A DNA stretch of 64,000 nt from NCBI RefSeq assembly GCF_001677475.2, contig NZ_CP015229.1; one strand, written 5' to 3'. The stretch comes from Escherichia coli. GTDB lineage: Bacteria > Pseudomonadota > Gammaproteobacteria > Enterobacterales > Enterobacteriaceae. Shown in pieces: positions 1,796 through 49,876 of the stretch; position 1 is the stretch's first letter, and every line of letters begins with the position of its first letter. The translations under genes were made by a program, and so were the position numbers. The notes below the pieces were generated by a model. The model ran no database searches. It was given only the letters and a program-made list of their open reading frames with translations, and had not been told where the DNA came from.

Positions 1796-2803
<1,008 letters not shown>

Positions 2804-2824
2804 GTTGAGATGACACTGTGATCT

Positions 2825-2855
2825 AAAAAGAGCGACTTCGGTCGCTCTTTTTTTT
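2825..2855 (+). terminator. Rho-independent terminator of gapA
   Basis: aaaaagagcgacttcggtcgctc followed by T8 run, immediately after gapA stop. Confidence 0.7.
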
Positions 2856-2886
2856 ACCTGATAAAATGAAGTTAAAGGACTGCGTC

Positions 2887-3771
2887 ATGATTAAGAAAAT
2901 TTTTGCCCTTCCGGTCATCGAACAAATCTCCCCTGTCCTCTCCCGTCGTAAACTGGATGAACTGGACCTCATTGTGGTCGATCATCCCCAGGTAAAAGCC
3001 TCTTTTGCATTACAGGGCGCACACCTTCTCTCGTGGAAACCTGCGGGTGAAGAAGAAGTTCTGTGGTTGAGTAACAACACACCGTTCAAAAATGGCGTCG
3101 CCATTCGCGGTGGCGTACCGGTTTGCTGGCCGTGGTTTGGTCCGGCTGCACAACAAGGTCTGCCTGCGCACGGTTTTGCCCGCAACCTGCCGTGGACGCT
3201 GAAATCACATCGTGAAGATGCTGATGGCGTAGCGCTGACTTTTGAATTGACACAAAGCGAAGAGACGAAAAAATTCTGGCCACACGACTTTACGCTATTA
3301 GCGCATTTCCGCGTGGGTAAAGCCTGTGAAATCGATCTTGAAGCACACGGCGAATTTGAAACCACCTCTGCACTGCATACCTACTTTAACGTGGGTAATA
3401 TCGCTAAGGTAAGCGTCAGTGGGCTGGGCGATCGCTTCATTGATAAAGTGAATGACGCGAAAGAAGATGTACTGACCGACGGTATTCAGACCTTCCCTGA
3501 CCGTACCGATCGCGTGTATCTGAATCCGCAAGATTGCAGCGTTATTAATGATGAAGCGCTGAATCGTATTATCGCCGTAGGCCACCAGCATCATCTGAAC
3601 GTTGTAGGCTGGAACCCAGGACCGGCGCTTTCAGTTAGCATGGGCGATATGCCGGATGATGGCTACAAGACCTTTGTTTGTGTAGAAACGGCTTACGCTT
3701 CAGAAACGCAAAAAGTGACCAAAGAGAAACCTGCACATCTGGCGCAATCCATTCGCGTTGCGAAACGTTAA
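2887..3771 (+). CDS. yeaD: Putative glucose-6-phosphate 1-epimerase (aldose 1-epimerase family) YeaD
   Basis: ORF 2866..3771; start set at ATG 2887 (MIKKIFALP), 294 aa. Confidence 0.8.
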   Translation: MIKKIFALPVIEQISPVLSRRKLDELDLIVVDHPQVKASFALQGAHLLSWKPAGEEEVLWLSNNTPFKNGVAIRGGVPVCWPWFGPAAQQGLPAHGFARNLPWTLKSHREDADGVALTFELTQSEETKKFWPHDFTLLAHFRVGKACEIDLEAHGEFETTSALHTYFNVGNIAKVSVSGLGDRFIDKVNDAKEDVLTDGIQTFPDRTDRVYLNPQDCSVINDEALNRIIAVGHQHHLNVVGWNPGPALSVSMGDMPDDGYKTFVCVETAYASETQKVTKEKPAHLAQSIRVAKR

Positions 3772-3821
3772 TTTGCGTTAATGTTGTGTGCCGGGTGCGA
3801 TGCATCCGGCACGTATCAACA

Positions 3822-4676
3822 TCACACCATATCCAGCGCAGTTTTTCCTTTTGGTGCCGGATATGCCTTATCCAGCATAGCTAATTCCGCTGACGAAAGT
3901 TCAACCTCAAGCACAGCCGCATTTTGTTGGACATGGGCAATCGTGGCCGCTTTTGGAATCGCCATCACCCCCTGATGGCTGATTACCCACGCCAACAATA
4001 CTTGTGCCGCGCTGATATTGTGAGCATGTGCAATTTCGTTGACTACCGCGTTTTTTAACAGCCCATTGCGCAACCGCCCGGCCTGAGCTAACGGACTGTA
4101 AGCCATCACCGGTATCTGCTGTTGCTGGCACCAGGGGAGTAGATCGTACTCAATCCCTCGTGAACCGAGATGGTAAAGCACCTGATTAGTGGCACACTGA
4201 TTTCCCCCCGGCAGCTGCCAGAGTTCCTGCATATCGGCATAATCAAGGTTAGAAACGCCCCAGCGGCGGATTTTTCCCCCGGCGATCAATTTTTCCATCG
4301 CTGCGACAGTCTCTTCAAAAGCGAAACTGCCAGACCAGTGTAATAAGTAAAGATCGAGATAATCAGTATTGAGACGGCGTAAACTGGCTTCGCATGCATT
4401 TATCGCTTTTTGCCCGCCAGCATTCCACGGATAGACTTTAGAGACGAGAAAGACCTTCTCTCGCAGACCGGCTAATGCCTCCCCAACCACCTTTTCGGCA
4501 CCGCCATCGGCATACATTTCGGCGGTATCAATGAGGGTTAAACCGAGCTCAATGCCCGCGCGTAGTGCAGCAACTTCTGTTTTACGCTTACTAGCGTCTT
4601 CGCCCATATACCATGTTCCCTGCCCAATGGCTGGCAGTGAGACATCGCCACTAAATTGAATCATTTTTTGTTGCAT
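3822..4676 (-). CDS. yeaE: Aldo-keto reductase (methylglyoxal reductase) YeaE
   Basis: ORF 3822..4676, 284 aa; AKR-family sequence. Confidence 0.8.
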   Translation of the reverse strand: MQQKMIQFSGDVSLPAIGQGTWYMGEDASKRKTEVAALRAGIELGLTLIDTAEMYADGGAEKVVGEALAGLREKVFLVSKVYPWNAGGQKAINACEASLRRLNTDYLDLYLLHWSGSFAFEETVAAMEKLIAGGKIRRWGVSNLDYADMQELWQLPGGNQCATNQVLYHLGSRGIEYDLLPWCQQQQIPVMAYSPLAQAGRLRNGLLKNAVVNEIAHAHNISAAQVLLAWVISHQGVMAIPKAATIAHVQQNAAVLEVELSSAELAMLDKAYPAPKGKTALDMV

Positions 4677-7982: not shown

Positions 7983-9278
<1,296 letters not shown>

Positions 9279-9424
9279 AACTATCAGCCGGGTCATTATC
9301 GCCTGGCTGATTTTTAGCTCACTGTAAATTATCTCATTTATTACATACATTAGCTTACAATCGCTTTAAATATGACAGCATAACCTTTACACAATTTAGT
9401 TCCAGAAAACAATCATTCGGAAAA

Positions 9425-10900
9425 ATGATTCGGTCAACACGTGTTTCCCTAGGGTTATTCTTTAAATATTTTTTATCGTTAACGAAAATTGATCCTGGTC
9501 AAAACTATATATCTCTGCCATCAATAAAATCCAGCACTCACATTGCTCTCCTTTTTATGGTTTCTATGGGTACACAAAAATTAAAAGCTCAAGGCTTTTT
9601 TATTTTCAGTTTATTGCTGACGTTAATTTTATTTTGCATTACTACCTTATATAACGAAAACACGAATGTAAAACTCATCCCACAGATGAATTACCTGATG
9701 GTTGTTGTGGCTTTGTTTTTCCTTAACGCCGTCATTTTTCTTTTCATGTTAATGAAATATTTCACTAACAAACAAATTTTACCAACACTCATTTTAAGCC
9801 TTGCATTTTTAAGTGGCCTTATCTATTTAGTTGAAACCATTGTAATTATCCATAAACCAATCAACGGCAGTACACTGATCCAGACAAAGTCGAATGATGT
9901 TTCTATTTTCTATATTTTCCGCCAACTCAGTTTTATTTGTTTAACCTCGCTGGCGCTCTTTTGTTATGGAAAAGACAACATCTTTGAAAACAATAAGAAA
10001 AAAACTGGCATTCTGTTACTGGCGCTGATTCCTTTTTTAGTTTTTCCCCTTCTGGCACACAATCTGAGCAGTTATAACGCTGACTATTCTTTGTATGTCG
10101 TCGATTACTGTCCGGACAACCATACTGCGACCTGGGGAATCAACTATACAAAAATATTGGTTTGTTTGTGGGCATTTTTACTGTTCTTTATTATCATGCG
10201 TACACGATTAGCCAGCGAACTATGGCCGTTAATAGCATTATTATGTCTGGCATCGCTATGCTGCAACTTACTTCTACTGACTCTGGATGAGTATAATTAC
10301 ACCATCTGGTATATCAGTCGTGGGATTGAAGTTTCCAGTAAACTGTTTGTTGTGTCTTTTCTGATTTATAACATTTTTCAGGAACTGCAACTCTCCAGCA
10401 AACTGGCAGTTCATGATGTGCTGACCAATATTTATAATCGGCGCTACTTTTTCAACAGCGTAGAGTCATTATTGTCGCGACCTGTTGTTAAGGACTTCTG
10501 TGTCATGCTGGTTGATATTAATCAGTTCAAACGCATCAATGCCCAATGGGGACATCGTGTGGGTGATAAAGTGCTGGTTTCAATTGTCGATATTATCCAG
10601 CAAAGCATCCGCCCCGATGATATTTTAGCGCGACTGGAGGGTGAGGTGTTTGGCTTGCTGTTTACCGAACTCAATAGTGCCCAGGCAAAAATCATTGCAG
10701 AACGTATGCGTAAAAATGTCGAACTCCTGACCGGCTTTAGTAACAGATATGATGTTCCTGAACAAATGACCATCAGTATTGGCACGGTTTTTTCAACGGG
10801 TGACACGCGTAATATCTCGCTTGTCATGACGGAAGCAGATAAAGCCTTACGCGAAGCGAAAAGCGAGGGGGGCAACAAAGTGATTATTCATCATATTTAA
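9425..10900 (+). CDS. yeaI: Membrane protein with degenerate GGDEF domain (EGEVF) YeaI/CdgI
   Basis: ORF 9425..10900, 491 aa; multi-TM N-terminus; GGDEF-like C-terminus with EGEVF in place of GG(D/E)EF; AT-rich gene. Confidence 0.8.
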   Translation: MIRSTRVSLGLFFKYFLSLTKIDPGQNYISLPSIKSSTHIALLFMVSMGTQKLKAQGFFIFSLLLTLILFCITTLYNENTNVKLIPQMNYLMVVVALFFLNAVIFLFMLMKYFTNKQILPTLILSLAFLSGLIYLVETIVIIHKPINGSTLIQTKSNDVSIFYIFRQLSFICLTSLALFCYGKDNIFENNKKKTGILLLALIPFLVFPLLAHNLSSYNADYSLYVVDYCPDNHTATWGINYTKILVCLWAFLLFFIIMRTRLASELWPLIALLCLASLCCNLLLLTLDEYNYTIWYISRGIEVSSKLFVVSFLIYNIFQELQLSSKLAVHDVLTNIYNRRYFFNSVESLLSRPVVKDFCVMLVDINQFKRINAQWGHRVGDKVLVSIVDIIQQSIRPDDILARLEGEVFGLLFTELNSAQAKIIAERMRKNVELLTGFSNRYDVPEQMTISIGTVFSTGDTRNISLVMTEADKALREAKSEGGNKVIIHHI

Positions 10901-11080
10901 GTGCAAAAATATTCAGAGCCATGCTTTTTGCGTGGCTTTTGCATACAATTTATTACTATTACCCCTAAATTTCCCCTCCCCAGCGGCGCAGAGATGAGTA
11001 TAATTAGCGCCCCTGTGCCAGGCCGCAATCGAACTTTATCTGGTTTTCTCGTTTCACTAACCGAAGGAGTGCCATTTATC

Positions 11081-12571
11081 ATGAAATTGCACCATAGAAT
11101 GCTCCGGCATTTTATCGCCGCAAGTGTCATTGTGCTGACATCTTCCTTCCTTATTTTTGAACTTGTCGCCAGCGACAGAGCAATGAGTGCTTATCTGCGC
11201 TATATCGTGCAGAGAGCAGACTCCTCCTTTCTTTATGATAAGTATCAGAATCAGAGTATTGCCGCGCATGTGATGCGCGCTCTCGCTGCTGAGCAGTCGG
11301 AAGTGTCGCCAGAACAGCGGCGCGCCATCTGCGAGGCTTTTGAGTCTGCCAATAATACCCATGGCTTAAACCTGACTGCCCATAAATACCCGGGCTTACG
11401 CGGCACACTACAAACCGCATCCACTGACTGCGACACAATTGTGGAAGCTGCAGCACTATTACCCGCTTTTGATCAGGCAGTGGAAGGCAACCGCCACCAG
11501 GATGATTACGGTTCAGGTCTTGGGATGGCCGAAGAGAAATTTCACTATTATCTCGATCTCAATGACCGCTATGTCTATTTTTATGAGCCGGTTAATGTTG
11601 AATACTTTGCGATGAATAACTGGTCCTTCCTGCAGTCAGGAAGTATTGGCATCGATCGCAAAGATATTGAAAAGGTATTTACCGGGCGTACCGTATTATC
11701 GAGCATTTACCAGGATCAGCGTACTAAACAGAACGTGATGAGTTTGCTGACGCCGGTATATGTCGCAGGGCAGCTAAAAGGGATTGTGCTGCTGGATATT
11801 AACAAAAACAATTTGCGGAATATCTTTTACACTCATGACCGCCCTCTCCTCTGGCGTTTTCTCAATGTCACGCTAACTGATACCGATTCGGGGCGCGACA
11901 TTATCATCAACCAGAGCGAAGATAATCTGTTCCAGTATGTCAGTTACGTCCATGACTTACCGGGCGGCATTCGTGTCTCGTTATCCATTGATATTCTTTA
12001 CTTTATCACGTCTTCGTGGAAAAGCGTTCTGTTCTGGATTTTGACGGCGTTAATTTTGCTGAATATGGTCCGGATGCACTTCCGTTTATACCAAAATGTG
12101 TCGCGAGAAAATATTAGTGATGCGATGACTGGACTGTATAATCGCAAAATTTTAACCCCTGAACTGGAACAGCGGTTGCAGAAACTGGTGCAATCCGGTT
12201 CTTCGGTGATGTTTATTGCTATTGACATGGACAAGTTAAAGCAAATAAATGACACCCTCGGTCATCAGGAGGGGGATTTAGCGATTACGTTATTAGCTCA
12301 GGCGATTAAACAGTCGATTCGTAAAAGTGATTATGCCATCCGACTCGGTGGCGATGAATTCTGCATCATCCTTGTCGATTCGACGCCGCAAATTGCAGCA
12401 CAACTGCCTGAACGTATCGAAAAACGTCTGCAACATATCGCGCCGCAGAAAGAGATCGGCTTCTCTTCCGGTATTTACGCGATGAAAGAAAACGATACGT
12501 TACATGATGCGTATAAAGCTTCCGATGAGCGTTTATATGTCAATAAGCAGAACAAAAACAGCCGTTCATGA
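11081..12571 (+). CDS. dgcJ: Diguanylate cyclase DgcJ (YeaJ), periplasmic sensor plus GGDEF
   Basis: ORF 10901..12571; start set at ATG 11081 (MKLHHRMLRH) preceded by aaggagt RBS; RLGGDEF active-site motif. Confidence 0.8.
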   Translation: MKLHHRMLRHFIAASVIVLTSSFLIFELVASDRAMSAYLRYIVQRADSSFLYDKYQNQSIAAHVMRALAAEQSEVSPEQRRAICEAFESANNTHGLNLTAHKYPGLRGTLQTASTDCDTIVEAAALLPAFDQAVEGNRHQDDYGSGLGMAEEKFHYYLDLNDRYVYFYEPVNVEYFAMNNWSFLQSGSIGIDRKDIEKVFTGRTVLSSIYQDQRTKQNVMSLLTPVYVAGQLKGIVLLDINKNNLRNIFYTHDRPLLWRFLNVTLTDTDSGRDIIINQSEDNLFQYVSYVHDLPGGIRVSLSIDILYFITSSWKSVLFWILTALILLNMVRMHFRLYQNVSRENISDAMTGLYNRKILTPELEQRLQKLVQSGSSVMFIAIDMDKLKQINDTLGHQEGDLAITLLAQAIKQSIRKSDYAIRLGGDEFCIILVDSTPQIAAQLPERIEKRLQHIAPQKEIGFSSGIYAMKENDTLHDAYKASDERLYVNKQNKNSRS

Positions 12572-27255: not shown

Positions 27256-27282
27256 TCAAAAAAAACGCCGGATTAACCGGCG
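27256..27282 (-). terminator. Rho-independent terminator after fadD
   Basis: Minus strand reads gccggttaatccggcg followed by U8. Confidence 0.55.
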
Positions 27283-27302
27283 TCTGACGACTGACTTAAC
27301 GC

Positions 27303-28988
27303 TCAGGCTTTATTGTCCACTTTGCCGCGCGCTTCGTCACGTAATTCTCGTCGCAAAATTTTTCCGACGTTAGATTTCGGTAACTCATCACGAAACTCCA
27401 CCAGCTTCGGTACTTTGTAGCCCGTGAGCTGACGGCGGCAAAAGGTCACCAGTGACTCTTCGGTAAGCGATGGATCTTTTTTCACTACGAAGATTTTCAC
27501 CGCTTCACCACTGGAGCCGGAAGGTACGCCAACAGCCGCGACTTCCTGTACGCCAGGATGCTGCATGACGACATCTTCAATCTCGTTGGGATAGACGTTA
27601 AAACCGGAAACCAGAATCATGTCTTTTTTACGATCGACAATGCGCAGGAATCCTTCTTCATCCATCACCGCGATGTCGCCGGTGTGTAACCAGCCATTTT
27701 TGATGATTTCATCGGTAGCATCCGGACGCTGCCAGTAACCCAGCATCACCTGCGGTCCTTTGACACAAAGCTCACCCGGTTGACCCGGTGGTACTTCATT
27801 ATCATCATCATCCACAAGTTTTGCTTCCGTCGACGGCACCGGCAAACCGATGCTACCACTATGATAATCAATATCATACGGGTTAACGCTCACCAGCGGC
27901 GCACACTCGGTCAGGCCATAACCTTCCAGCAGATACTGTCCTGTCAGTTTCACCCAACGTTCTGCCACCACTTGCTGAACAGGCATCCCTCCGCCTGCGG
28001 AAAGATGCAGACTGGAGAAATCCAGCTGCTGGAACTCTTTATTGTTCAGCAACGCATTGAACAAGGTGTTTACGCCGGTGATAGCGGTAAACGGATATTT
28101 CGCTAACTCTTTTACCAACCCTGGAATATCGCGCGGGTTAGTGATAAGCAGGTTCTGCCCACCCAGTTCGATAAACAGCAGGCAGTTAATGGTCAGGGCA
28201 AAAATGTGATAGAGCGGCAGTGCCGTTACTACCAGTTCTTTACCTGGATGCAGCAACGGCCCATAGGTGGCGTTGACCTGTTCCAGGTTCGCCAGCATAT
28301 TGCGGTGAGTCAGCATCGCGCCTTTCGCCACACCTGTGGTGCCGCCGGTGTATTGCAGGAAGGCTAAATCTTCCGGCACCAGTTCGGGTTTGACGTACTG
28401 CATCCGGTAGCCGTTATGCAGTGCGCTACGAAATGAAATGGCATCTGGCAGATGGTATTTCGGCACCAGACGCTTGATGTATTTAACAACAAAATTGACT
28501 ACCGTGCCTTTTGCCGTAGATAGCTGATCGCCCATACGGGTCAGAATTACGTGCTGAACGGCGGTTTTATCAACCACTTTTTCCAGAGTGTGGGCAAAGT
28601 TAGACACGATAACAATCGCCGATGCGCCGCTATCGTTAAGCTGATGCTCAAGTTCACGCGGGGTATACAACGGGTTAACGTTTACGACAATCATCCCGGC
28701 ACGCAAAATACCAAACAGCGCCACCGGATATTGCAATAAATTAGGCATCATCAACGCAACGCGATCGCCTTTCTTCAGTCCCAACCCTTGTTGCAAATAA
28801 GCGGCAAACGCGCGACTGCGTTCTTCCAGTTTGCGGAAGGTCATCACCTCCCCCATATTCACAAACGCGGGTTGATCGGCGTAGCGCGCGACCGACTGCT
28901 CAAACATATCTACCAGAGATTGATAACGGTCAGGGTTGATCTCCGTCGGAACGTCCGCGGGATAACGGTTAAGCCAAACCTTCTTCAA
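27303..28988 (-). CDS. fadD: Long-chain fatty acid-CoA ligase FadD
   Basis: ORF 27303..29054; AMP-binding motif [16 protein letters not shown]; start placed at TTG ([10 protein letters not shown]) per recalled K-12 annotation; upstream ATG is possible. Confidence 0.9.
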
Positions 28989-37668: not shown

Positions 37669-39267
37669 ATGCAAAAAGCACAACGGATCATTAAAACCTA
37701 TCGCCGTAATCGAATGATTGTTTGTACGATTTGCGCACTCGTTACGCTCGCTTCGACCCTGAGCGTGCGATTTATTTCACAGCGTAACTTAAATCAACAA
37801 CGGGTAGTACAATTCGCCAATCACGCTGTAGAGGAATTAGATAAAGTACTGCTTCCCCTACAGGTAGGTAGCGAAGTCTTGCTTCCGCTGATTGGTCTGC
37901 CCTGCTCTGTCGCCCATTTGCCATTACGTAAACAGGCGGCAAAACTCCAAACTGTGCGATCCATTGGCCTGGTGCAAGACGGCACACTTTATTGCTCCAG
38001 CATTTTTGGTTATCGCAATGTGCCCGTCGTGGACATTCTGGCTGAACTTCCTGCACCGCAACCACTTTTACGCCTGACGACCGATCGTGCCCTGATTAAA
38101 GGCAGTCCGGTTTTGATTCAATGGACGCCTGCAGCGGGCAGTAGCAATGCTGGGGTCATGGAGATGATTAACATCGACTTACTGACAGCAATGCTGCTTG
38201 AGCCACAACTGCCGCAAATCAGTAGCGCCAGCCTGACGGTGGACGATCGGCATTTGCTCTATGGTAATGGGCTGGTAGATTCCCTTCCGCAACCTGAAAA
38301 CAATGAAAACTACCAGGTTTCTTCGCAACGCTTTCCTTTTACCATTAACGTTAATGGTCCGGGGGCTACGGCGCTGGCATGGCACTATCTTCCAACACAA
38401 TTACCGCTGGCGGTGCTGCTAAGTTTACTTGTGGGCTATATCGCCTGGCTGGCGACCGCTTACCGGATGAGTTTTTCCCGCGAAATCAATCTGGGCCTAG
38501 CGCAACATGAGTTCGAATTGTTCTGCCAGCCTTTGCTTAATGCGCGCAGCCAGCAATGTATTGGTGTAGAGATTTTGCTGCGCTGGAACAATCCACGTCA
38601 GGGCTGGATTTCACCGGATGTGTTTATTCCTATCGCGGAAGAACATCATTTAATTGTGCCACTGACCCGCTATGTGATGGCAGAAACCATCCGTCAGCGG
38701 CATGTTTTCCCAATGAGTAGTCAGTTTCATGTTGGCATTAACGTCGCACCCAGTCATTTTCGCCGTGGTGTGCTGATAAAAGATCTCAATCAGTACTGGT
38801 TTAGCGCTCACCCGATTCAGCAACTGATCCTCGAAATCACCGAACGCGATGCCTTACTGGATGTGGATTATCGGATTGCCCGCGAACTGCATCGTAAAAA
38901 CGTCAAACTGGCGATTGATGACTTCGGCACCGGCAACAGTTCATTTTCCTGGCTTGAAACATTACGTCCTGACGTGCTGAAAATTGATAAGTCATTTACC
39001 GCAGCTATAGGTTCTGACGCGGTTAACTCGACGGTGACCGATATCATCATCGCACTGGGGCAAAGACTGAATATTGAACTGGTGGCGGAGGGTGTGGAAA
39101 CGCAAGAACAGGCGAAATATTTGCGCCGTCATGGCGTGCATATTTTGCAAGGGTATTTGTACGCACAGCCGATGCCGCTACGTGATTTTCCCAAATGGCT
39201 GGCGGGCAGCCAACCGCCGCCCGCCCGGCATAATGGACATATCACACCCATTATGCCGTTACGTTAA
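37669..39267 (+). CDS. pdeD: c-di-GMP phosphodiesterase PdeD (YoaD), CSS-motif sensor plus EAL domain
   Basis: ORF 37639..39267; start set at MQKAQRIIKTY; EAL-domain sequence (ELVAEGVET). Confidence 0.8.
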   Translation: MQKAQRIIKTYRRNRMIVCTICALVTLASTLSVRFISQRNLNQQRVVQFANHAVEELDKVLLPLQVGSEVLLPLIGLPCSVAHLPLRKQAAKLQTVRSIGLVQDGTLYCSSIFGYRNVPVVDILAELPAPQPLLRLTTDRALIKGSPVLIQWTPAAGSSNAGVMEMINIDLLTAMLLEPQLPQISSASLTVDDRHLLYGNGLVDSLPQPENNENYQVSSQRFPFTINVNGPGATALAWHYLPTQLPLAVLLSLLVGYIAWLATAYRMSFSREINLGLAQHEFELFCQPLLNARSQQCIGVEILLRWNNPRQGWISPDVFIPIAEEHHLIVPLTRYVMAETIRQRHVFPMSSQFHVGINVAPSHFRRGVLIKDLNQYWFSAHPIQQLILEITERDALLDVDYRIARELHRKNVKLAIDDFGTGNSSFSWLETLRPDVLKIDKSFTAAIGSDAVNSTVTDIIIALGQRLNIELVAEGVETQEQAKYLRRHGVHILQGYLYAQPMPLRDFPKWLAGSQPPPARHNGHITPIMPLR

Positions 39268-44665: not shown

Positions 44666-44673
44666 AGTTGTTT
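44666..44673. repeat. Left copy of 8-bp target-site duplication AGTTGTTT flanking the IS
   Basis: Identical 8-mer immediately outside both IS ends (44666-44673 and 47082-47089). Confidence 0.6.
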
Positions 44674-44765
44674 ATGAGACGACAATAACTCAGTCCGCCT
44701 GGCGCCGATTATTCTGGCCGGTTTTGTAACCTGAGTGTCATTTACATGATCCAACAGGAAATGGC

Positions 44766-46265
44766 GTGACGCTCAATACTTCTCAGGTCAGTTACTATAT
44801 GACTCAGCGTAAGAAAGGTATAACTCAGCATATCTCGGCCATGAAGGCTGGTATCTCAGTCCGTTCTGGTCGTCGGATCGAAAAAGGAGAGTGGGCAAAA
44901 AACAGTGTTCGGCACTGGCGCACACGCAAAGATCCTCTGGAAGCTGTGTGGGACAGCATGCTTGTTCCTCTGTTGAAAGAGAGGCCGGCTCTGACACCAA
45001 CAACTCTACTGGAGATGCTACAGGATAAATATCCCGGCCAGTACCCCAACAGCCTTCGAAGAACAATGCAACGGCGGGTTCGCGAATGGAAACTACAGTA
45101 TGGTACAGAGCAGGAGGTCATGTTCCGCCAGCAACATCAGCCCGGCCTGCGAGGCCTGTCGGACTTTACTGAACTGAAAGGTGTAGTTGTCACCATCGCC
45201 GGTAAGTTGTTGGCGCATAAGTTGTATCACTTCCGTCTGGAATGGAGCCACTGGAGCTGGATGCGGGTTGTTCTGGGTGGTGAGAGCTTCTCTGCTCTGG
45301 CTGAAGGCCTGCAGGAAGCCCTCGGACAACTGGGCGGAGTGCCGGTAGAACATAAAACGGACAGCCTGAGGGCAGCATGGAAACAACAGGGCGAAGATGG
45401 ACGCCGCGAGCTGACTGAGCGTTATGCTACTCTCTGTCAGCACTACGGAATGCAGGGCGTACACAATAATGCCGGTCGGGGCCACGAAAATGGCTCGGTT
45501 GAAAGTGCCCACGGACATCTGAAAAGGCGTATCTGTCAGGCGCTGATACTGCGGGGCAGTAACGACTTCAGCACCATAGAAGAATATCAGGCCTTCATCA
45601 CTCAGCAGGTTATGCGGCACAACCGTAACAATCAGGATCTGGTCAAGGAAGAACGTCTTCATCTGAAACCGCTGCCGCTTCGTCGCAGTGCTGACTATGA
45701 TGAGCTGACTGTGAGGGTTAGTCGCAGCAGTACCATCAATGTGAAGCACGTCGTCTACAGCGTACCTTCCCGGCTTGTAGGTCAACTGTTACGGGTCAGG
45801 TTATGGGACGATCGTCTGAGCTGTTACGTTGGCAGCAGCGAGGTCATGAGCTGCCCTCGCGTCAGACCAGAAAAAGGGAAGACGCGGGCCCGTCGTATCG
45901 ACTTCCGACATGTGATCGACAGTCTGGCAAAAAAGCCCGGTGCGTTCTGCCATGCAACGCTGAGAAATGACATCCTGCCGGACGATGAATGGCGGAGGCT
46001 GTGGCGTCGCTTATGTAATCATCTGGAGCCCGATATGGCAGGAAGGCTGATGGTACATGCCCTGAAACTGGCTGCAGGATACGACGATATCTCAGTCGTG
46101 GCAAAAGGTATGGAGCAGATGCTGAATACCCCGGGAAACGTGGATCTGCACCGGCTGATGCGCTTCCTGGGTATAAAAGAAAAGGCGTTGCCGGTAGTCA
46201 ATGTGATACAGCATAACCTGAGCAGTTATGAGCAACTACTGCGTGGCAAGGGAGGTTCGCAGTGA
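44766..46265 (+). CDS. istA: IS21-family transposase IstA
   Basis: ORF 44766..46265, 499 aa; N-terminal HTH-like region; start may be GTG 44766 or ATG 44799; stop overlaps istB start (GTGA). Confidence 0.85.
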   Translation: MTLNTSQVSYYMTQRKKGITQHISAMKAGISVRSGRRIEKGEWAKNSVRHWRTRKDPLEAVWDSMLVPLLKERPALTPTTLLEMLQDKYPGQYPNSLRRTMQRRVREWKLQYGTEQEVMFRQQHQPGLRGLSDFTELKGVVVTIAGKLLAHKLYHFRLEWSHWSWMRVVLGGESFSALAEGLQEALGQLGGVPVEHKTDSLRAAWKQQGEDGRRELTERYATLCQHYGMQGVHNNAGRGHENGSVESAHGHLKRRICQALILRGSNDFSTIEEYQAFITQQVMRHNRNNQDLVKEERLHLKPLPLRRSADYDELTVRVSRSSTINVKHVVYSVPSRLVGQLLRVRLWDDRLSCYVGSSEVMSCPRVRPEKGKTRARRIDFRHVIDSLAKKPGAFCHATLRNDILPDDEWRRLWRRLCNHLEPDMAGRLMVHALKLAAGYDDISVVAKGMEQMLNTPGNVDLHRLMRFLGIKEKALPVVNVIQHNLSSYEQLLRGKGGSQ

Positions 46266-47017
46266 GCAATATCCATCACCTTGAACATAGCCTGCGTAAA
46301 CTACGCCTGACACGAGTTGGAGCTGAATGGCACGCTCTGGAAAAACGAGCGCTGGCAGAAGGCTGGACACCATCGCGCTATCTTCTGACGCTATGCAATG
46401 AAGAACTCCTGTGGCGCGAGAGTGAAAAACTGCGTCGTTATAAAAAGGAGGCCCGGTTGCCAGTTGCCAAAACGCTGAGCGAATACGACTTCAGTCAGGT
46501 GCCGGAACTGAATGGAGCTCAGTTCCGGCAACTCTGTGAAACGACAGACTGGGTTGATGCAGGAGAAAACGTTCTGCTGTTCGGAGCCAGCGGGTTGGGG
46601 AAAAGCCATCTGGCGGCAGCGATCGTGGATGGCGTAGTAGGTCAGGGCTACCGGGCCCGGTTCTACAGCGCAGGAGAGCTGTTGCAGGAACTACGTAAAG
46701 CCAGAGCTCAGTTGAAACTGAATGAGCTGCTACTGAAACTGGATCGCTACCGGGTGATAGTGGTGGATGATCTTGGCTATGTCAAACGCGATAGTGCCGA
46801 AACGGGTGTGCTGTTCGAGTTAATAGCGCATCGCTATGAACGTGGGAGCCTGGTGATAACCAGTAACCATCCGTTCAGCATGTGGGGCAGCATCTTCGTG
46901 GATGAGACTATGGCGGTGGCTGCGGCAGACAGGCTGCTCCATCACGGATATATGTTCGAACTGAAAGGGGAAAGCTACAGGAAAAAGACAGCGAAGGCAG
47001 TAACAAGCGCGACTTGA
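46262..47017 (+). CDS. istB: IS21-family helper ATPase IstB (AAA+/DnaC-like)
   Basis: ORF 46262..47017, 251 aa; Walker A GASGLGKSHLA; Walker B VVDDLGY. Confidence 0.85.
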   Translation: MSNIHHLEHSLRKLRLTRVGAEWHALEKRALAEGWTPSRYLLTLCNEELLWRESEKLRRYKKEARLPVAKTLSEYDFSQVPELNGAQFRQLCETTDWVDAGENVLLFGASGLGKSHLAAAIVDGVVGQGYRARFYSAGELLQELRKARAQLKLNELLLKLDRYRVIVVDDLGYVKRDSAETGVLFELIAHRYERGSLVITSNHPFSMWGSIFVDETMAVAAADRLLHHGYMFELKGESYRKKTAKAVTSAT

Positions 47018-47081
47018 TGTCGCCCTGAAGGGTGCGGCCAGTATAGTTGGCGCGAGTCGGCAAAACTAGTTGACGTCTAAT

Positions 47082-47089
47082 AGTTGTTT
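47082..47089. repeat. Right copy of 8-bp target-site duplication AGTTGTTT
   Basis: See left copy. Confidence 0.6.
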
Positions 47090-47111: not shown

Positions 47112-47240
47112 GTTGCGCCCTCATTTGGGGAGTAGCCGATTTCCAGATTCCGGAAATGTACGTGTCAACATACTCGTTGCAAAACGTGGCACGTACGGAC
47201 TGAACACTTTCAGTCAGGCGAGACCATATGCACATCAATC
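47112..47240 (+). promoter_or_regulatory. yybP-ykoY-type Mn(2+) riboswitch aptamer in mntP 5' leader
   Basis: Conserved elements ttggggagtagc ... gtcaacatac ... ggcgagaccatatg upstream of mntP; boundaries approximate. Confidence 0.6.
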
Positions 47241-48719: not shown

Positions 48720-48812
48720 GACAACTCCGGCAGGATACTAAAGGCCGCAAGTGTAACGCGAATCACGCGGCGGGCAAATATCCGAACGCCAGGAGCGAAG
48801 ATAAAGCAAAGT

Positions 48813-48840
48813 AAAAAGCCTCGCATTCGACGAGGCTTTA
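48813..48840 (-). terminator. Rho-independent terminator after cspC
   Basis: Minus strand: aaagcctcgtcgaatgcgaggc followed by U5. Confidence 0.55.
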
Positions 48841-48884
48841 TAGCGAGATTGAAGCGTATTCACACTTCAGATCAGTGGATTCGA

Positions 48885-49094
48885 TCAGATAGCTGTTACG
48901 TTAACAGCTGCCGGACCTTTCTGGCCGTCCTGAATTTCGAACTCAACGTTCTGACCTTCAGCCAGAGTTTTGAAGCCATTACCCTGGATAGCGGAGAAGT
49001 GTACGAACACGTCTTTGCTGCCATCAGCCGGAGTAATGAAGCCAAAACCTTTAGACTCGTTGAACCACTTAACCTGACCTTTAATCTTTGCCAT
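48885..49094 (-). CDS. cspC: Cold-shock-domain protein CspC
   Basis: ORF 48885..49094, 69 aa; [23 protein letters not shown] motifs. Confidence 0.95.
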
Positions 49095-49107
49095 TTGAAA
49101 AATTCCT

Positions 49108-49251
49108 TAGATTGTTTTCTTCGCCCGCAGGCATAACATAGATAAAACTGACACATTACTGCATGAGGCACCAATATAAGGCTCGGCAGAGAAGCGGTAT
49201 TCAACGTCAACGTGTTTACTCAGGACTTCTTTACTGAAAATGCCACACATA
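49108..49251 (-). CDS. yobF: Small protein YobF (47 aa), upstream of and probably co-transcribed with cspC
   Basis: Manual translation of minus strand: [47 protein letters not shown]. Confidence 0.7.
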
Positions 49252-49876
49252 AACAGAACTGTACCTCGTTTAACCCGAAATCTGTTATCACATACAACGT
49301 TAATTATGGCAAGCCATTTTTAAACATGTCTCGATCAGACGCACAAATCTCGATACGTCTTCCACTTTTTTTGCACACTTATGCAACGGAATACGCGCCG
49401 ATATATCATTGTGCTTAACCTTGCCAGTTCAGGCAGATACTTAAACTGACGTATTTTCTAACATAGTTCAATAAGTTCAGTTGTTCCAGGCCAGTAGGAG
49501 AAGTTATTACATAGTGCGTGCAATATCACATTTTCTGCTATGCAATGAATAAAAAGTTATATCACTTTTTCTCATAAAACAGTCAGTTAACGGCCACCAA
49601 TTACCCCAAAGAGAAGTCAATCCCCAATGGTATTGTAAATTTAAAATAAGAAAAATTGATGAATGCGCAAAAAAATCAAGAGAGAAACGTTTCGCTAATA
49701 AATAATACCACGCTTAATCACAAATCCGATGTAAACATCCTAATAAATTAATGGGCTAAATATCTTTTTCTGATATCTCGTTACGCAAATAAATAATATG
49801 ATAATTATTTGAAGTCAGACCAGAGTTTTAATTTGAAGCAGTTGCACCATGACAGTGCGTATAATCAGGATGAATT

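Follow-up and report, generated by a model that had tools for sequence, protein, structure and literature searches.

The window analysed here, a stretch of 64,000 nucleotides of Escherichia coli DNA, carries at 9425-10900 (+) an open reading frame of 491 aa that E. coli annotation and a domain search identify as cdgI (yeaI). It is the same gene as that of CdgI (YeaI, b1785) in E. coli K-12, with 98.5% identity at the DNA level and 98% at the protein level, and K-12 likewise has yeaH and dgcJ as flanks and EGEVF and RPDD as motifs in the protein. The window strain lies outside the set of 5426 complete E. coli genomes used for comparison, where the best match reaches 99.1%, and cdgI was found in 5411 of them (99.7%). 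cdgI is a core Escherichia gene that is already well known, its product being named in NC_000913.3 as "putative c-di-GMP binding protein CdgI".

CdgI is a member of the MASE4-GGDEF family, in which an N-terminal MASE4 domain (aa 88-319; Pfam PF17158, E 1.6e-48, 165.7 bits against a gathering cut-off of 28.4) is followed by a GGDEF domain (aa 328-485; Pfam PF00990, E 9.2e-45, 152.7 bits against a gathering cut-off of 23.8). The MASE4 integral-membrane domain, encoded at 9686-10381 (+), is supported by hydropathy, an AF2 model and invariant residues in addition to Pfam. The model (pLDDT 81, pTM 0.80) places eight transmembrane helices between about aa 49 and about aa 329, with a beta-hairpin in the periplasmic TM5-TM6 loop that contains a conserved HNLSSYN...W motif, and TM2-TM8 may form a GPCR-like seven-helix sensor arrangement. 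The degenerate GGDEF domain is encoded at 10406-10879 (+), and its top relatives of solved structure are active cyclases (E 6.5e-22 and weaker).

Base composition, origin and neighbourhood of cdgI

A reading made from the sequence only had described yeaI as AT-rich relative to its neighbours, rich in Ile, Leu, Phe and Asn and heavy in TTT and ATT codons, and this description is borne out. The GC content of cdgI, 0.383, is the lowest of the 61 mapped genes in the window and falls outside the local gene range, at z = -4.0 relative to a mean of 0.511 (sd 0.031) over the 42 genes that are 450 nt or longer, with lowered values at GC1 (0.420, z = -3.2), GC2 (0.312, z = -2.3) and GC3 (0.422, z = -2.8). 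Ile, Leu, Phe and Asn make up 38.7% of the residues, and TTT serves 24 of 35 Phe, ATT 30 of 50 Ile and TTA 25 of 76 Leu codons. Of the two per-gene measures proposed in the sequence-only reading, GC content sets cdgI apart, whereas codon adaptation does not: its Fop of 0.441 (z = -0.94) is the seventh lowest of 44 genes and within the local range, and we rejected codon adaptation as a sign of foreignness.

The AT-rich tract begins at the yeaH stop codon, and its core, at 9250-10000, covers the intergenic region and the 5' third of cdgI at a GC content of about 0.26-0.37, being deepest at 9550-9800 (0.26-0.31); the part encoding the GGDEF domain has 0.41-0.50. The H-NS, FNR and AppY data cited below derive from K-12 rather than from the window strain, and K-12 ChIP coordinates were transferred to the window by an offset fixed through the FNR site and the K-12 gene match. 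H-NS ChIP data had been suggested as a check on this segment, and a published ChIP-chip region of 2.8 kb (K-12 1867616-1870436; PMC3688515 Table S3), equivalent to window 8632-11452, spans the whole of cdgI. A published 304-bp "promoter island" at about window 9550-9853 is H-NS-bound in all studies cited (PMC3661553 Table 1); the excess of promoter-like sites was not reproduced in our simple sigma-70 scan (5 against 5.9 expected). H-NS over the AT-rich intergenic region and 5' third would keep cdgI nearly silent in laboratory culture; de-repression of cdgI without H-NS was not found in the PMC3688515 tables covered.

The GC content predicted from the amino-acid composition of CdgI alone is 0.432, such that 0.079 of the total deficit of 0.128 comes from composition; GC3 is 0.422 against 0.542 expected. 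About 60% of the deficit is due to the amino-acid composition of a membrane protein rich in Ile, Leu, Phe and Asn, and about 40% to AT-biased synonymous sites. It is conceivable, if doubtful, that low GC is merely a by-product of a hydrophobic membrane protein with very low expression, the DNA itself being under no selection, a view in line with the amino-acid share, with an Fop that is ordinary relative to weakly expressed neighbours and with a DgcT-like MASE4-GGDEF gene of E. cloacae whose deficit is about 0.07 at a normal GC3. However, GC3 is 0.39-0.45 in every cdgI orthologue against 0.50-0.68 in the neighbours, and since it stays low at saturated synonymous sites, where drift to the local level would otherwise be expected, a maintaining force is indicated. 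Against the by-product view, moreover, the non-coding leader is just as AT-rich (0.34), and the GC minimum coincides with the H-NS-bound promoter island.

Horizontal origin, which had been raised as a possibility from the composition, fares worse. The slot yeaG-yeaH-X-dgcJ-yeaK-yeaL is identical in E. albertii, in a further clade (P0007), in two other loci (L007 and L090) and in two Citrobacter loci, the position between yeaH and dgcJ being fixed in seven lineages across genera; the orthologues have a GC content of 0.36-0.39 against 0.50-0.58 in their neighbours. The flanks of cdgI are yeaH and dgcJ, with no mobility gene, tRNA, integrase or IS, and among the marks of a xenogeneic island we found atypical composition, but not patchy distribution, variable location or flanking mobility genes. 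The shared slot, the shared low GC, the 99.7% presence, the flanks free of mobility genes and the ordinary codon adaptation together exclude a recent acquisition: the AT-richness of cdgI is real but ancient, with no sign of recent import. Recent transfer is thereby removed as a wrong lead, and the identity of the gene is unchanged.

Acquisition at any time, with H-NS silencing a xenogeneic gene, is an unlikely source of the AT-richness, even though several observations favour it besides composition. Compositional methods flagged yeaI as foreign, with H-NS bound in all cited ChIP studies (PMC3661553); the MASE4 family is tiny, with 55 cluster representatives among 1.84 billion proteins; the paralogue dgcX is known as mobile; and cdgI has a higher dS than its neighbours (0.84 against 0.45 and, between two Citrobacter loci, 1.25 against 0.32-0.38). 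Against these stand the uniformly low GC of the orthologues and a slot that Escherichia, Citrobacter and two further lineages share despite saturated divergence (yeaH dS about 1.4); together these leave an event before the Escherichia/Citrobacter split as the sole possible acquisition scenario. We favour descent in place, in which cdgI would derive from an active MASE4-GGEEF cyclase that lay between yeaH and dgcJ before these genera diverged. In the contig scan for taxonomic spread, where matches to the generic GGDEF pattern predominated, the informative cases among the matches listed were E. albertii, the dgcT-like gene of E. cloacae and a C. werkmanii paralogue; no Salmonella-named match was among the MASE4 proteins found, and cdgI is not known from Salmonella.

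cdgI had also been placed in a c-di-GMP gene cluster, with four such genes within 30 kb and dgcP disrupted. The description is correct: cdgI, dgcJ (11081-12571 (+); GAPES1 and canonical GGDEF), a dgcP pseudogene (16755-17764 (+)) and pdeD (37669-39267 (+); a CSS-motif and EAL phosphodiesterase) lie within 29.8 kb. In dgcP, 16 bp between two copies of CGCCAG have been deleted (repeat at 17135-17140), which puts the GAF and GGDEF parts into different frames; of the 5417 complete E. coli genomes that gave a match, none carries this deletion (best identity 96.3%). The clustering is real but modestly non-random, as random placement of about 29 GGDEF/EAL genes on a K-12-sized chromosome would give four in 29.8 kb with P = 0.021.

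As a functional unit, the cluster does not hold up, and we consider a c-di-GMP module of these four genes quite improbable. Beyond their proximity, a module would be consistent with the adjacency of cdgI and dgcJ, conserved across genera and in every orthologous locus examined, with the failure to find a terminator-like site between these two genes, and with the increased motility of ST131 upon insertion into either yeaI or yeaP (PMC5425062). However, that adjacency is the only one conserved, and unrelated genes on both strands interrupt the four. AppY, whose ChIP peak lies within yeaI, increases yeaI about 35-fold when overproduced (reads 1/9/6 to 62/243/259) and leaves yeaJ unchanged (PMC10057817), and dgcJ is preceded by a sigma-70 peak of its own and by a promoter-like site. 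In addition, dgcP is inactivated in the window and dgcJ carries IS1 in some K-12 stocks, cdgI being unaffected both times.

Catalytic and c-di-GMP-binding sites of the GGDEF domain

Window 10610-10651 (+) translates to RPDDILARLEGEVF, that is RPDD-ILARL-EGEVF. RPDD (10610-10621 (+)) is the primary inhibitory site (I-site, RxxD), exactly five residues upstream of the active site (A-site), where translation confirms the sequence-only observation of EGEVF (10637-10651 (+)) instead of GG(D/E)EF; in the motif that marks an active cyclase, Glu thus takes the place of the first Gly, and Val that of the Glu at position four. The CdgI clade shows the A-site variants EGEEF, EGNVF, EGEVF and EGKRF, and the Citrobacter orthologues have GGEEF. 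The Arg and Asp of RxxD are kept in all five CdgI-clade sequences and in 25 of 30 MASE4-GGDEF proteins. Among these 30, loss of the A-site with retention of RxxD is confined to the five-member CdgI clade, two other degenerate lineages being without RxxD. The Arg of the secondary I-site is R427, which we take to be the equivalent of PleD R390, within AER(M/V/I)RKNVE, and it is conserved throughout the clade.

In active cyclases, the catalytic and substrate-binding residues are D327, K332, N335, D344, K442 and R446 in PleD numbering. CdgI maps onto this numbering without indels and keeps D364, K369, N372, D381 and K479, while E405, V408, A373, N366 and G483 are changed positions; the PleD equivalents lost are R446 (G483), D336 (A373) and D329 (N366), and the R446 equivalent is Gly in 5/5 members of the clade. 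We rejected the idea that the change in RINA removes the guanine-binding Asp, because the equivalents of N335 and D344 are both present and it is the D336 equivalent that has changed. At dN/dS values of 0.055-0.08 in both domains, cdgI is under purifying selection.

A c-di-GMP binder or effector rather than a cyclase, as the sequence-only reading had proposed, is supported by the lost A-site and R446, D336 and D329 equivalents, the kept I-site, purifying selection and published binding; this assignment is itself already published (Sarenko 2017). The purified GGDEF domain of K-12 CdgI binds c-di-GMP (PMC5635695 Fig. S4B) and engages in heteromeric GGDEF contacts, and CdgI is toxic when overexpressed and its protein below detection in standard laboratory culture (PMC5635695). 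CdgI is most likely a membrane-anchored c-di-GMP receptor or regulator, in which the cyclase site, together with the phosphate-binding Arg and two conserved Asp, appears to be gone, and the inhibitory-site pocket for c-di-GMP, formed by RxxD and the secondary Arg, appears to be retained. It would bind c-di-GMP via the I-site and act by contacting other GGDEF proteins, and this output step may lower motility.

That CdgI is still a diguanylate cyclase, perhaps weak or conditional, with its phenotypes due to c-di-GMP synthesis, is very improbable. D364, which binds Mg, the guanine-binding pair N372 and D381, and K479 are retained, Sanchez-Torres 2011, as cited by others, reports that YeaI raises c-di-GMP and lowers motility, and the cyclase WspR complements the biofilm defect of CFT073 yeaI in no-salt LB. 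WspR does not, however, complement the phenotype in glycerol medium, and the residue losses described above, with Gly at the R446 position throughout the clade, speak against synthesis. The A-site varies freely at positions 3 (E/N/K) and 4 (V/E/R), a sign that constraint there is relaxed, and two groups have termed CdgI catalytically inactive (PMC5635695, PMC10459773). Scarcely credible is the view of cdgI as a silent relic decaying into a pseudogene, which the degenerate active site, the undetectable protein and many truncated "partial" database entries might suggest, given low dN/dS in both domains over long divergence, an ORF intact in the window and across genera, an invariant I-site, yeaI phenotypes in K-12, CFT073 and ST131, and the finding that most truncated entries are contig-end fragments.

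Control region and start codon of cdgI

An intrinsic terminator of yeaH, with an 11-bp stem followed by a T-run, lies at 9283-9311 (+); the six orthologous loci that were aligned all share it, and it separates yeaH from the cdgI control region. Further downstream, an FNR box, TTGATCCTGGTCAA, at 9489-9502 (+) matches 9/10 positions of the consensus TTGAT-N4-ATCAA, occupies the same place in all nine orthologous leaders and is perfect in three of the loci (L090, L006 and L004). It is the K-12 site listed as bound in vivo (1868473, 15.15 bits; ChIP peak 1868480; PMC3688515 Tables S5 and S6), and FNR binding is documented through Table S7 of that paper as well. The 64-kb window holds five FNR-like matches against 3.2 expected, a count that is not significant by itself, and we retained the box because of its conservation and the published ChIP data. 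A -10 element, TAAAAT (TAGAAT in other lineages), follows after 22 nt at 9525-9530 (+), with T, A, A, A and T invariant in eight sequences and the box/-10 spacing fixed in six of seven lineages; across the seven, nine of ten specified FNR positions and five of six -10 positions are invariant.

Given the 22-nt gap, the centre of the box would lie at -41.5 relative to a predicted transcription start near 9537 (about 1,870,497 in NC_000913.3), the layout of a class II FNR promoter, with a box near -41.5 and about 22 nt upstream of the -10 hexamer. In K-12, an anaerobic sigma-70 ChIP-seq peak at 1868507 corresponds to window 9523, a further one lies at about window 10313, and FNR occupancy at yeaI rises from 1.57 to 2.55 in an hns/stpA double mutant (PMC3688515). 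Myers 2013 reported no FNR-dependent change in yeaI mRNA (PMC3688515, Table S9), so the class II FNR promoter remains putative; nor does yeaI figure among the genes listed as gaining O2 dependence once hns/stpA are mutated (PMC3688515).

Several other elements were considered. A CsrA-type hairpin overlapping the annotated ATG (9411-9428), with ATCATT/AATGAT as its stem and a GGA loop motif, folds no better than shuffled sequences (z = +0.94) and was rejected, as was an RstA box, TACATTAGCTTACA, at 9346-9359, called with two mismatches to what we presume to be the consensus, since such matches occur at chance level (3 found against 4.05 expected). At the intragenic AppY/sigma-70 site (about 10269-10313), synonymous-site conservation is average, and a conserved element there was likewise dismissed. 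A ATTCGGAAAAA block, noted together with the hairpin, is conserved, and a peak of synonymous conservation at 10484-10560 overlies the coding sequence of a DINQFK motif, probably as a codon-bias effect.

The FNR box and -10 element lie within the annotated N-terminal 44 codons (9425-9556 (+)), which probably serve as promoter and 5' leader and do not encode protein. This extension is open solely in E. coli proper: in the P0007 clade, E. albertii, L007, L090 and Citrobacter, an in-frame stop precedes the conserved start by 10-23 codons, and no start codon occurs where E. coli has the annotated ATG; the P0007 clade has one just five codons upstream of M45. Window and K-12 CdgI differ at ten residues, three in the doubtful first 44 codons and seven in the other 447. 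The ATG at M48 is invariant in all orthologues and opens the conserved coding sequence (9566-10900 (+)); Escherichia additionally has ATG or GTG at 9557 (M45). As the promoter would lie inside the annotated ORF, cdgI probably starts at 9557 or 9566 rather than at 9425, in which case any construct designed from the 491-aa annotation includes 44 non-native residues. There are also a second promoter-like site at 9386-9413 and a sigma-70 peak at about window 9345, and in E. coli, where the frame from the 9425 ATG is open, these could give a longer CdgI isoform.

Our joint explanation, to which we assign a probability of about 0.72, is that CdgI is a c-di-GMP receptor with a dead A-site, encoded in an ancient slot within an H-NS-covered AT tract and with a putative FNR-type promoter inside the annotated ORF. 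Expression would most likely proceed from this conserved class II FNR-type promoter and would probably be induced by low oxygen, by counter-silencers such as AppY, or by both. More tentatively, CdgI may be a low-oxygen-induced c-di-GMP receptor whose class II FNR promoter, conserved from Citrobacter to E. coli, sits in a misannotated 44-codon extension and whose AT-richness in the leader and the first third of the coding sequence has been selected as an H-NS silencing platform, which FNR and a counter-silencer such as AppY would have to overcome. A promoter hidden in this way would explain the listing of the published FNR site as lying "within yeaI", where no effect was attributed to it. What is new beyond published work is a small re-annotation of cdgI and the idea of anaerobic expression; the rest is already known.

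Comparison with related systems

PopA of Caulobacter and PelD of Pseudomonas likewise combine a dead A-site with an RxxD that binds c-di-GMP, and exert their output through protein contacts. Their partner domains, REC-REC in PopA and TM-GAF in PelD, are unlike that of CdgI, and the comparison covers the GGDEF fold. With regard to regulation, pdeF (yfgF) resembles cdgI in belonging to the membrane-bound GGDEF/EAL family and in carrying a strong FNR box bound in vivo, TTGATATATATCAA, which shares a published table with the yeaI site. pdeF is undetectable aerobically, and its anaerobic induction by FNR activation is established, whereas cdgI mRNA showed no FNR-dependent change.

CdgI has its architecture and length in common with DgcT (YcdT) and DgcX, active MASE4-GGDEF cyclases of E. 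coli and relatives that share 38-40% identity and the RxxD with CdgI but, unlike it, keep GGEEF and the full catalytic set. dgcT lies beside pgaABCD (in locus L009), and its E. cloacae homologue has a near-normal GC3; dgcX is mobile. The Citrobacter MASE4-GGEEF orthologues (P0020, P0024 and P0025), 57-61% identical to CdgI, share the cdgI slot, the low GC, the FNR box, the -10 element and their spacing. In contrast to CdgI, they carry a canonical GGEEF with Asp and Arg at the catalytic positions, and on account of these residues they are presumably active cyclases. They appear to represent the ancestral state, and the series from GGEEF through EGEEF to EGEVF, EGNVF and EGKRF, with an invariant RxxD, would make cdgI a clean natural case of an enzyme turned receptor.

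Identity, composition and origin of cdgI

The window, an E. coli-type stretch of chromosome, extends from pncA to yebW; in it, cdgI (yeaI; 9425-10900, + strand) encodes a 491-aa protein composed of a MASE4 domain (aa 88-319, Pfam E 1.6e-48) and a GGDEF domain (aa 328-485, Pfam E 9.2e-45). Of 5426 complete E. coli genomes, 5424 gave a Megablast match to the gene, 5411 of them at a coverage of at least 80%, and both its annotation as cdgI and its position between yeaH and dgcJ are constant across the matched genomes. The copy studied here reaches a top identity of 99.1% among complete E. coli genomes and 98.5% with K-12; the product label in NC_000913.3 is “putative c-di-GMP binding protein CdgI”.

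To describe composition, 61 genes were mapped onto the window and z-scores calculated against the 42 genes measuring 450 nt or more. The GC content of cdgI, 0.383, is the minimum among the 61 (z = -4.0; mean 0.511, sd 0.031) and is low at every codon position (GC1 0.420, GC2 0.312, GC3 0.422). Ile, Leu, Phe and Asn make up 38.7% of residues, with TTT used for 24 of 35 Phe and ATT for 30 of 50 Ile, in agreement with the sequence-only reading, which had called the gene AT-rich relative to its neighbours and rich in these residues and codons. Of its two proposed per-gene checks, GC content marks cdgI as an outlier and codon adaptation does not (Fop 0.441, z = -0.94). Expected values were derived from protein composition and the pooled codon usage of the window; because amino acids alone predict a GC of 0.432, ~0.079 of the 0.128 deficit is assigned to the protein, and ~0.049 to synonymous choice (GC3 expected 0.542 vs 0.422 observed). 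Starting from the stop codon of yeaH, the AT-rich tract has its lowest GC at 9550-9800 (0.26-0.31) and weakens over the GGDEF part of the gene (0.41-0.50). Further AT-rich kilobases, mostly small genes and intergenic DNA, lie at 32.5-34 kb (GC 0.41) and 49-50.5 kb (GC 0.38-0.39).

Orthologues were located in contigs through exact-protein look-ups, and every locus placed shows the gene order yeaG-yeaH-X-dgcJ-yeaK-yeaL. In Citrobacter sp. Awk 4 (P0024) and a related contig (P0020), the same slot holds a canonical GGEEF protein, encoded at a GC of 0.374-0.383 among neighbours of 0.50-0.58; the orthologues of other lineages range from 0.356 to 0.392, GC3 across cdgI orthologues is 0.39-0.45, and yeaH, compared between the window and these loci, has a saturated dS (~1.4). 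Given the shared slot, the shared low GC and the saturated yeaH divergence, low GC and GC3 predate the split of these genera. Horizontal acquisition long ago is possible, as compositional methods flag yeaI as foreign (PMC3661553), the MASE4-GGDEF family is narrow, and dS of cdgI exceeds that of its neighbours (0.84 vs 0.45; 1.25 vs 0.32-0.38 between two Citrobacter loci). The possible horizontal origin raised in the sequence-only reading fails in the form of a recent transfer into E. coli, which the orthologous loci exclude. A low GC3 is not forced by the amino-acid composition of the family on its own, since a DgcT-like member from E. cloacae, adjoining pgaBCD, has a GC of 0.487 and a GC3 of 0.604. 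The cdgI and dgcJ phylogenies conflict: at locus L007 (dgcJ 3155-4645), cdgI is nearer E. coli (77% aa) yet dgcJ is more divergent (dN 0.248, against window 11081-12571), while at L090 (dgcJ 1848-3335) cdgI is farther (64%) and dgcJ nearer (dN 0.102). This discordance suggests recombination within the pair.

Catalytic and inhibitory sites of CdgI and its c-di-GMP neighbours

The translation of 10610-10651 reads RPDDILARLEGEVF, with EGEVF in place of GG(D/E)EF, just as had been noticed from the sequence. MASE4 is a very small family, with 55 cluster representatives among 1.84 billion proteins (E <= 1e-3), and catalytic positions were read from an alignment of 30 MASE4-GGDEF members, in which CdgI aligns without indels to PleD numbering at these positions. 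We take CdgI D364, N372, D381, K479 and G483 to be equivalent to PleD D327, N335, D344, K442 and R446, R396xxD399 to R359xxD362, and E405-F409 to G368-F372. GG(D/E)E(F/Y) and a complete catalytic set are present in 23 of the 30. The CdgI clade comprises five lineages (E. coli, an 89%-identical clade, E. albertii, and lineages at 77% and 64% identity), whose A-sites read EGEVF, EGEEF, EGNVF, EGEVF and EGKRF. In all five, the phosphate-binding Arg position is Gly, the D336 position is Ala or Asn and the conserved Tyr preceding K442 is lost, the D329 position being Asn in three; RxxD and the secondary Arg (R427) are retained throughout. Two other degenerate lineages of the family (TGQIF, GSNSF) have lost RxxD as well. 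Within the CdgI clade, A-site positions 3 and 4 drift freely and the I-site is frozen while synonymous divergence is saturated, the pattern to be expected if an enzyme had become a c-di-GMP receptor. With dN/dS of 0.055-0.08 in both domains (yeaH 0.01; dgcJ 0.016-0.03), cdgI is maintained rather than decaying.

The main rival explanation, that CdgI is a cyclase raising c-di-GMP, rests on a claim to that effect for YeaI, reportedly originating with Sanchez-Torres 2011. In CFT073, deletion of yeaI causes biofilm defects, for which complementation with the cyclase WspR succeeds in one medium and fails in another. Sarenko et al. found the A-site degenerate and the I-site intact, and showed that the purified domain binds c-di-GMP, that CdgI engages other GGDEF domains in strong heteromeric interactions, and that it is toxic if overexpressed and undetectable as protein in culture (2017; PMC5635695). 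The Römling laboratory terms it catalytically non-functional (PMC10459773), and yeaI insertions in ST131 lead to higher motility (PMC5425062). A binding or effector role rather than synthesis, as proposed from the sequence, thus agrees with the degenerate A-site, the retained RxxD and the published binding; the receptor-not-cyclase conclusion had been reached earlier in the literature.

The reported proximity of dgcJ (11081-12571), a disrupted dgcP (16755-17764) and pdeD (37669-39267; CSS-motif and EAL) was confirmed, four of ~29 GGDEF/EAL genes lying within 29.8 kb (P = 0.021 under random placement). In dgcP, 16 bp are deleted between two CGCCAG direct repeats (17128-17145), which breaks the frame. 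Of the 5417 complete E. coli genomes matched, none carries this deletion (best identity 96.3%); it is therefore private to this strain, which lies outside that collection, or to its lineage. An MG1655 stock (NZ_CP009685.1) carries IS1 within dgcJ (12896-13593 of locus L002), an insertion also reported for BW30270 (PMC8117528).

The 5' leader, start codon and regulatory sites

Alignment of orthologous loci from the yeaH stop codon to the first TM helix revealed conserved blocks within the first 44 annotated codons (9425-9556), in a pattern that is not codon-like. Only E. coli proper has an open frame across this N-terminal extension and a start codon where the annotation places it; other lineages have an in-frame stop 10-23 codons upstream of the conserved Met. 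Window and K-12 proteins differ at 3 of 44 residues in the extension and 7 of 447 in the remainder. The conserved elements are an FNR box, TTGAT-N4-(A/G)TCAA, at 9489-9502 (perfect consensus in three lineages, one mismatch in others) and, exactly 22 nt after it, a -10 element, TA(A/G)AAT, at 9525-9530. The box centre precedes the first base of the hexamer by 29.5 nt, as in class II FNR promoters (box at -41.5), and this arrangement predicts a transcription start near 9537. Across 8 sequences from 7 lineages, 9 of 10 specified box positions and 5 of 6 of the -10 are invariant, and the spacer is almost unconserved; taken alone, a one-mismatch box would turn up by chance in a sequence of 64 kb.

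In 2013, Myers et al. listed in their supplementary tables a site, TTGATCCTGGTCAA, at K-12 position 1868473 (15.15 bits, “Within yeaI”, bound in vivo), with an FNR ChIP peak at 1868480 positive across all data sets and occupancy rising from 1.57 to 2.55 in an hns/stpA mutant (PMC3688515). This is exactly the conserved box, and it fixed the K-12-to-window offset, confirmed with NC_000913.3. With this offset, K-12 data from the same study place sigma-70 peaks at 9523 (anaerobic), ~10313 (strongly anaerobic, 15.6 to 407.9) and 11012 (preceding dgcJ), and an H-NS ChIP-chip region at 8632-11452, which covers yeaI, the segment for which H-NS data had been sought. Panyukov and Ozoline described a 304-bp H-NS-bound “promoter island” that maps to ~9550-9853 (PMC3661553). 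Against a simple FNR switch count the absence of FNR-dependent change in yeaI mRNA and of yeaI from the list of genes O2-dependent without H-NS and StpA (PMC3688515). Searchable paper texts yielded no link of cdgI expression to FNR or anaerobiosis. We infer that the published “intragenic” site is the ancestral cdgI promoter; translation would then start at 9557 (M45) or 9566 (M48, an invariant ATG), and expression would require low oxygen plus relief of H-NS silencing.

Just 5' of the annotated ATG, the block AATCATTCGGAAAAA (9409-9423), which contains GGA, forms no stable hairpin and is not accounted for by the FNR promoter, is conserved from E. coli to Citrobacter and diverged in E. albertii. 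A second FNR-like match, TTGATATTAATCAG (one mismatch; 10512-10525, over VDINQ codons), lies within 10484-10560, where synonymous-site conservation of cdgI is highest, and is probably a coincidence of coding and codon bias. A K-12 AppY ChIP summit maps to ~10269, and when AppY is overproduced, yeaI reads climb from 1/9/6 to 62/243/259 with yeaJ (dgcJ) unchanged (PMC10057817). At ~10269-10313 (codons ~282-297), the summit coincides with the sigma-70 peak that rises 26-fold anaerobically; synonymous sites there show no unusual conservation, and a promoter-like site lies on the minus strand at 10317-10290. On long contigs of draft assemblies, many “partial” CdgI proteins likewise stop here, at aa ~281-285, suggestive of recurrent IS insertion or an assembly break.

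The yobD-mntP intergenic region is another H-NS-bound “promoter island” in K-12; here, ISEc10 (IS21-family; ~44673-47086, with istA at 44766-46265 and istB at 46262-47017) is inserted between the two genes, ending 33 nt upstream of a Mn2+ (yybP-ykoY) riboswitch (47119-47215; 41.9 bits, slightly below the Rfam cut-off of 45), and probably separates mntP from its native promoter. The features of the window that pass the Rfam gathering score are, upstream of cspE, a thermoregulator leader of the cspA type (48810-49270, minus strand) and the sRNA sroD (27259-27344, minus strand). The ydjE-ydjL sugar-utilisation cluster (~9 kb in K-12 and ST2747) is missing between pncA and yeaC (578-741); as 1089 of the 5426 complete E. 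coli genomes share this junction, the cluster shows a common presence/absence polymorphism.

Membrane domain and proposed mechanism

An AlphaFold2 model of residues 45-330, built from 24 family sequences (pLDDT 81, pTM 0.80), predicts eight TM helices; between TM5 and TM6, the loop forms a small beta-hairpin and carries the best-conserved motif of the family, HNLSSYN...W. The positive-inside rule and the cytoplasmic location of the GGDEF domain put this loop in the periplasm. MASE4 may read a periplasmic or membrane signal, which, together with cytoplasmic c-di-GMP at the I-site, would set the engagement of CdgI with partner GGDEF proteins, and the conserved FNR-type promoter would drive the gene once H-NS silencing is relieved.

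By the present comparison and the literature, CdgI sits in the membrane, its A-site is dead and its I-site conserved; it binds c-di-GMP, makes contact with other GGDEF domains and reduces motility, and its gene lies under H-NS and is almost silent in culture. The sequence-only finding was accurate for a gene already well described; to that description, we add evidence for its ancient AT-richness, a natural series from enzyme to receptor, and a proposed re-reading of the start codon and promoter.
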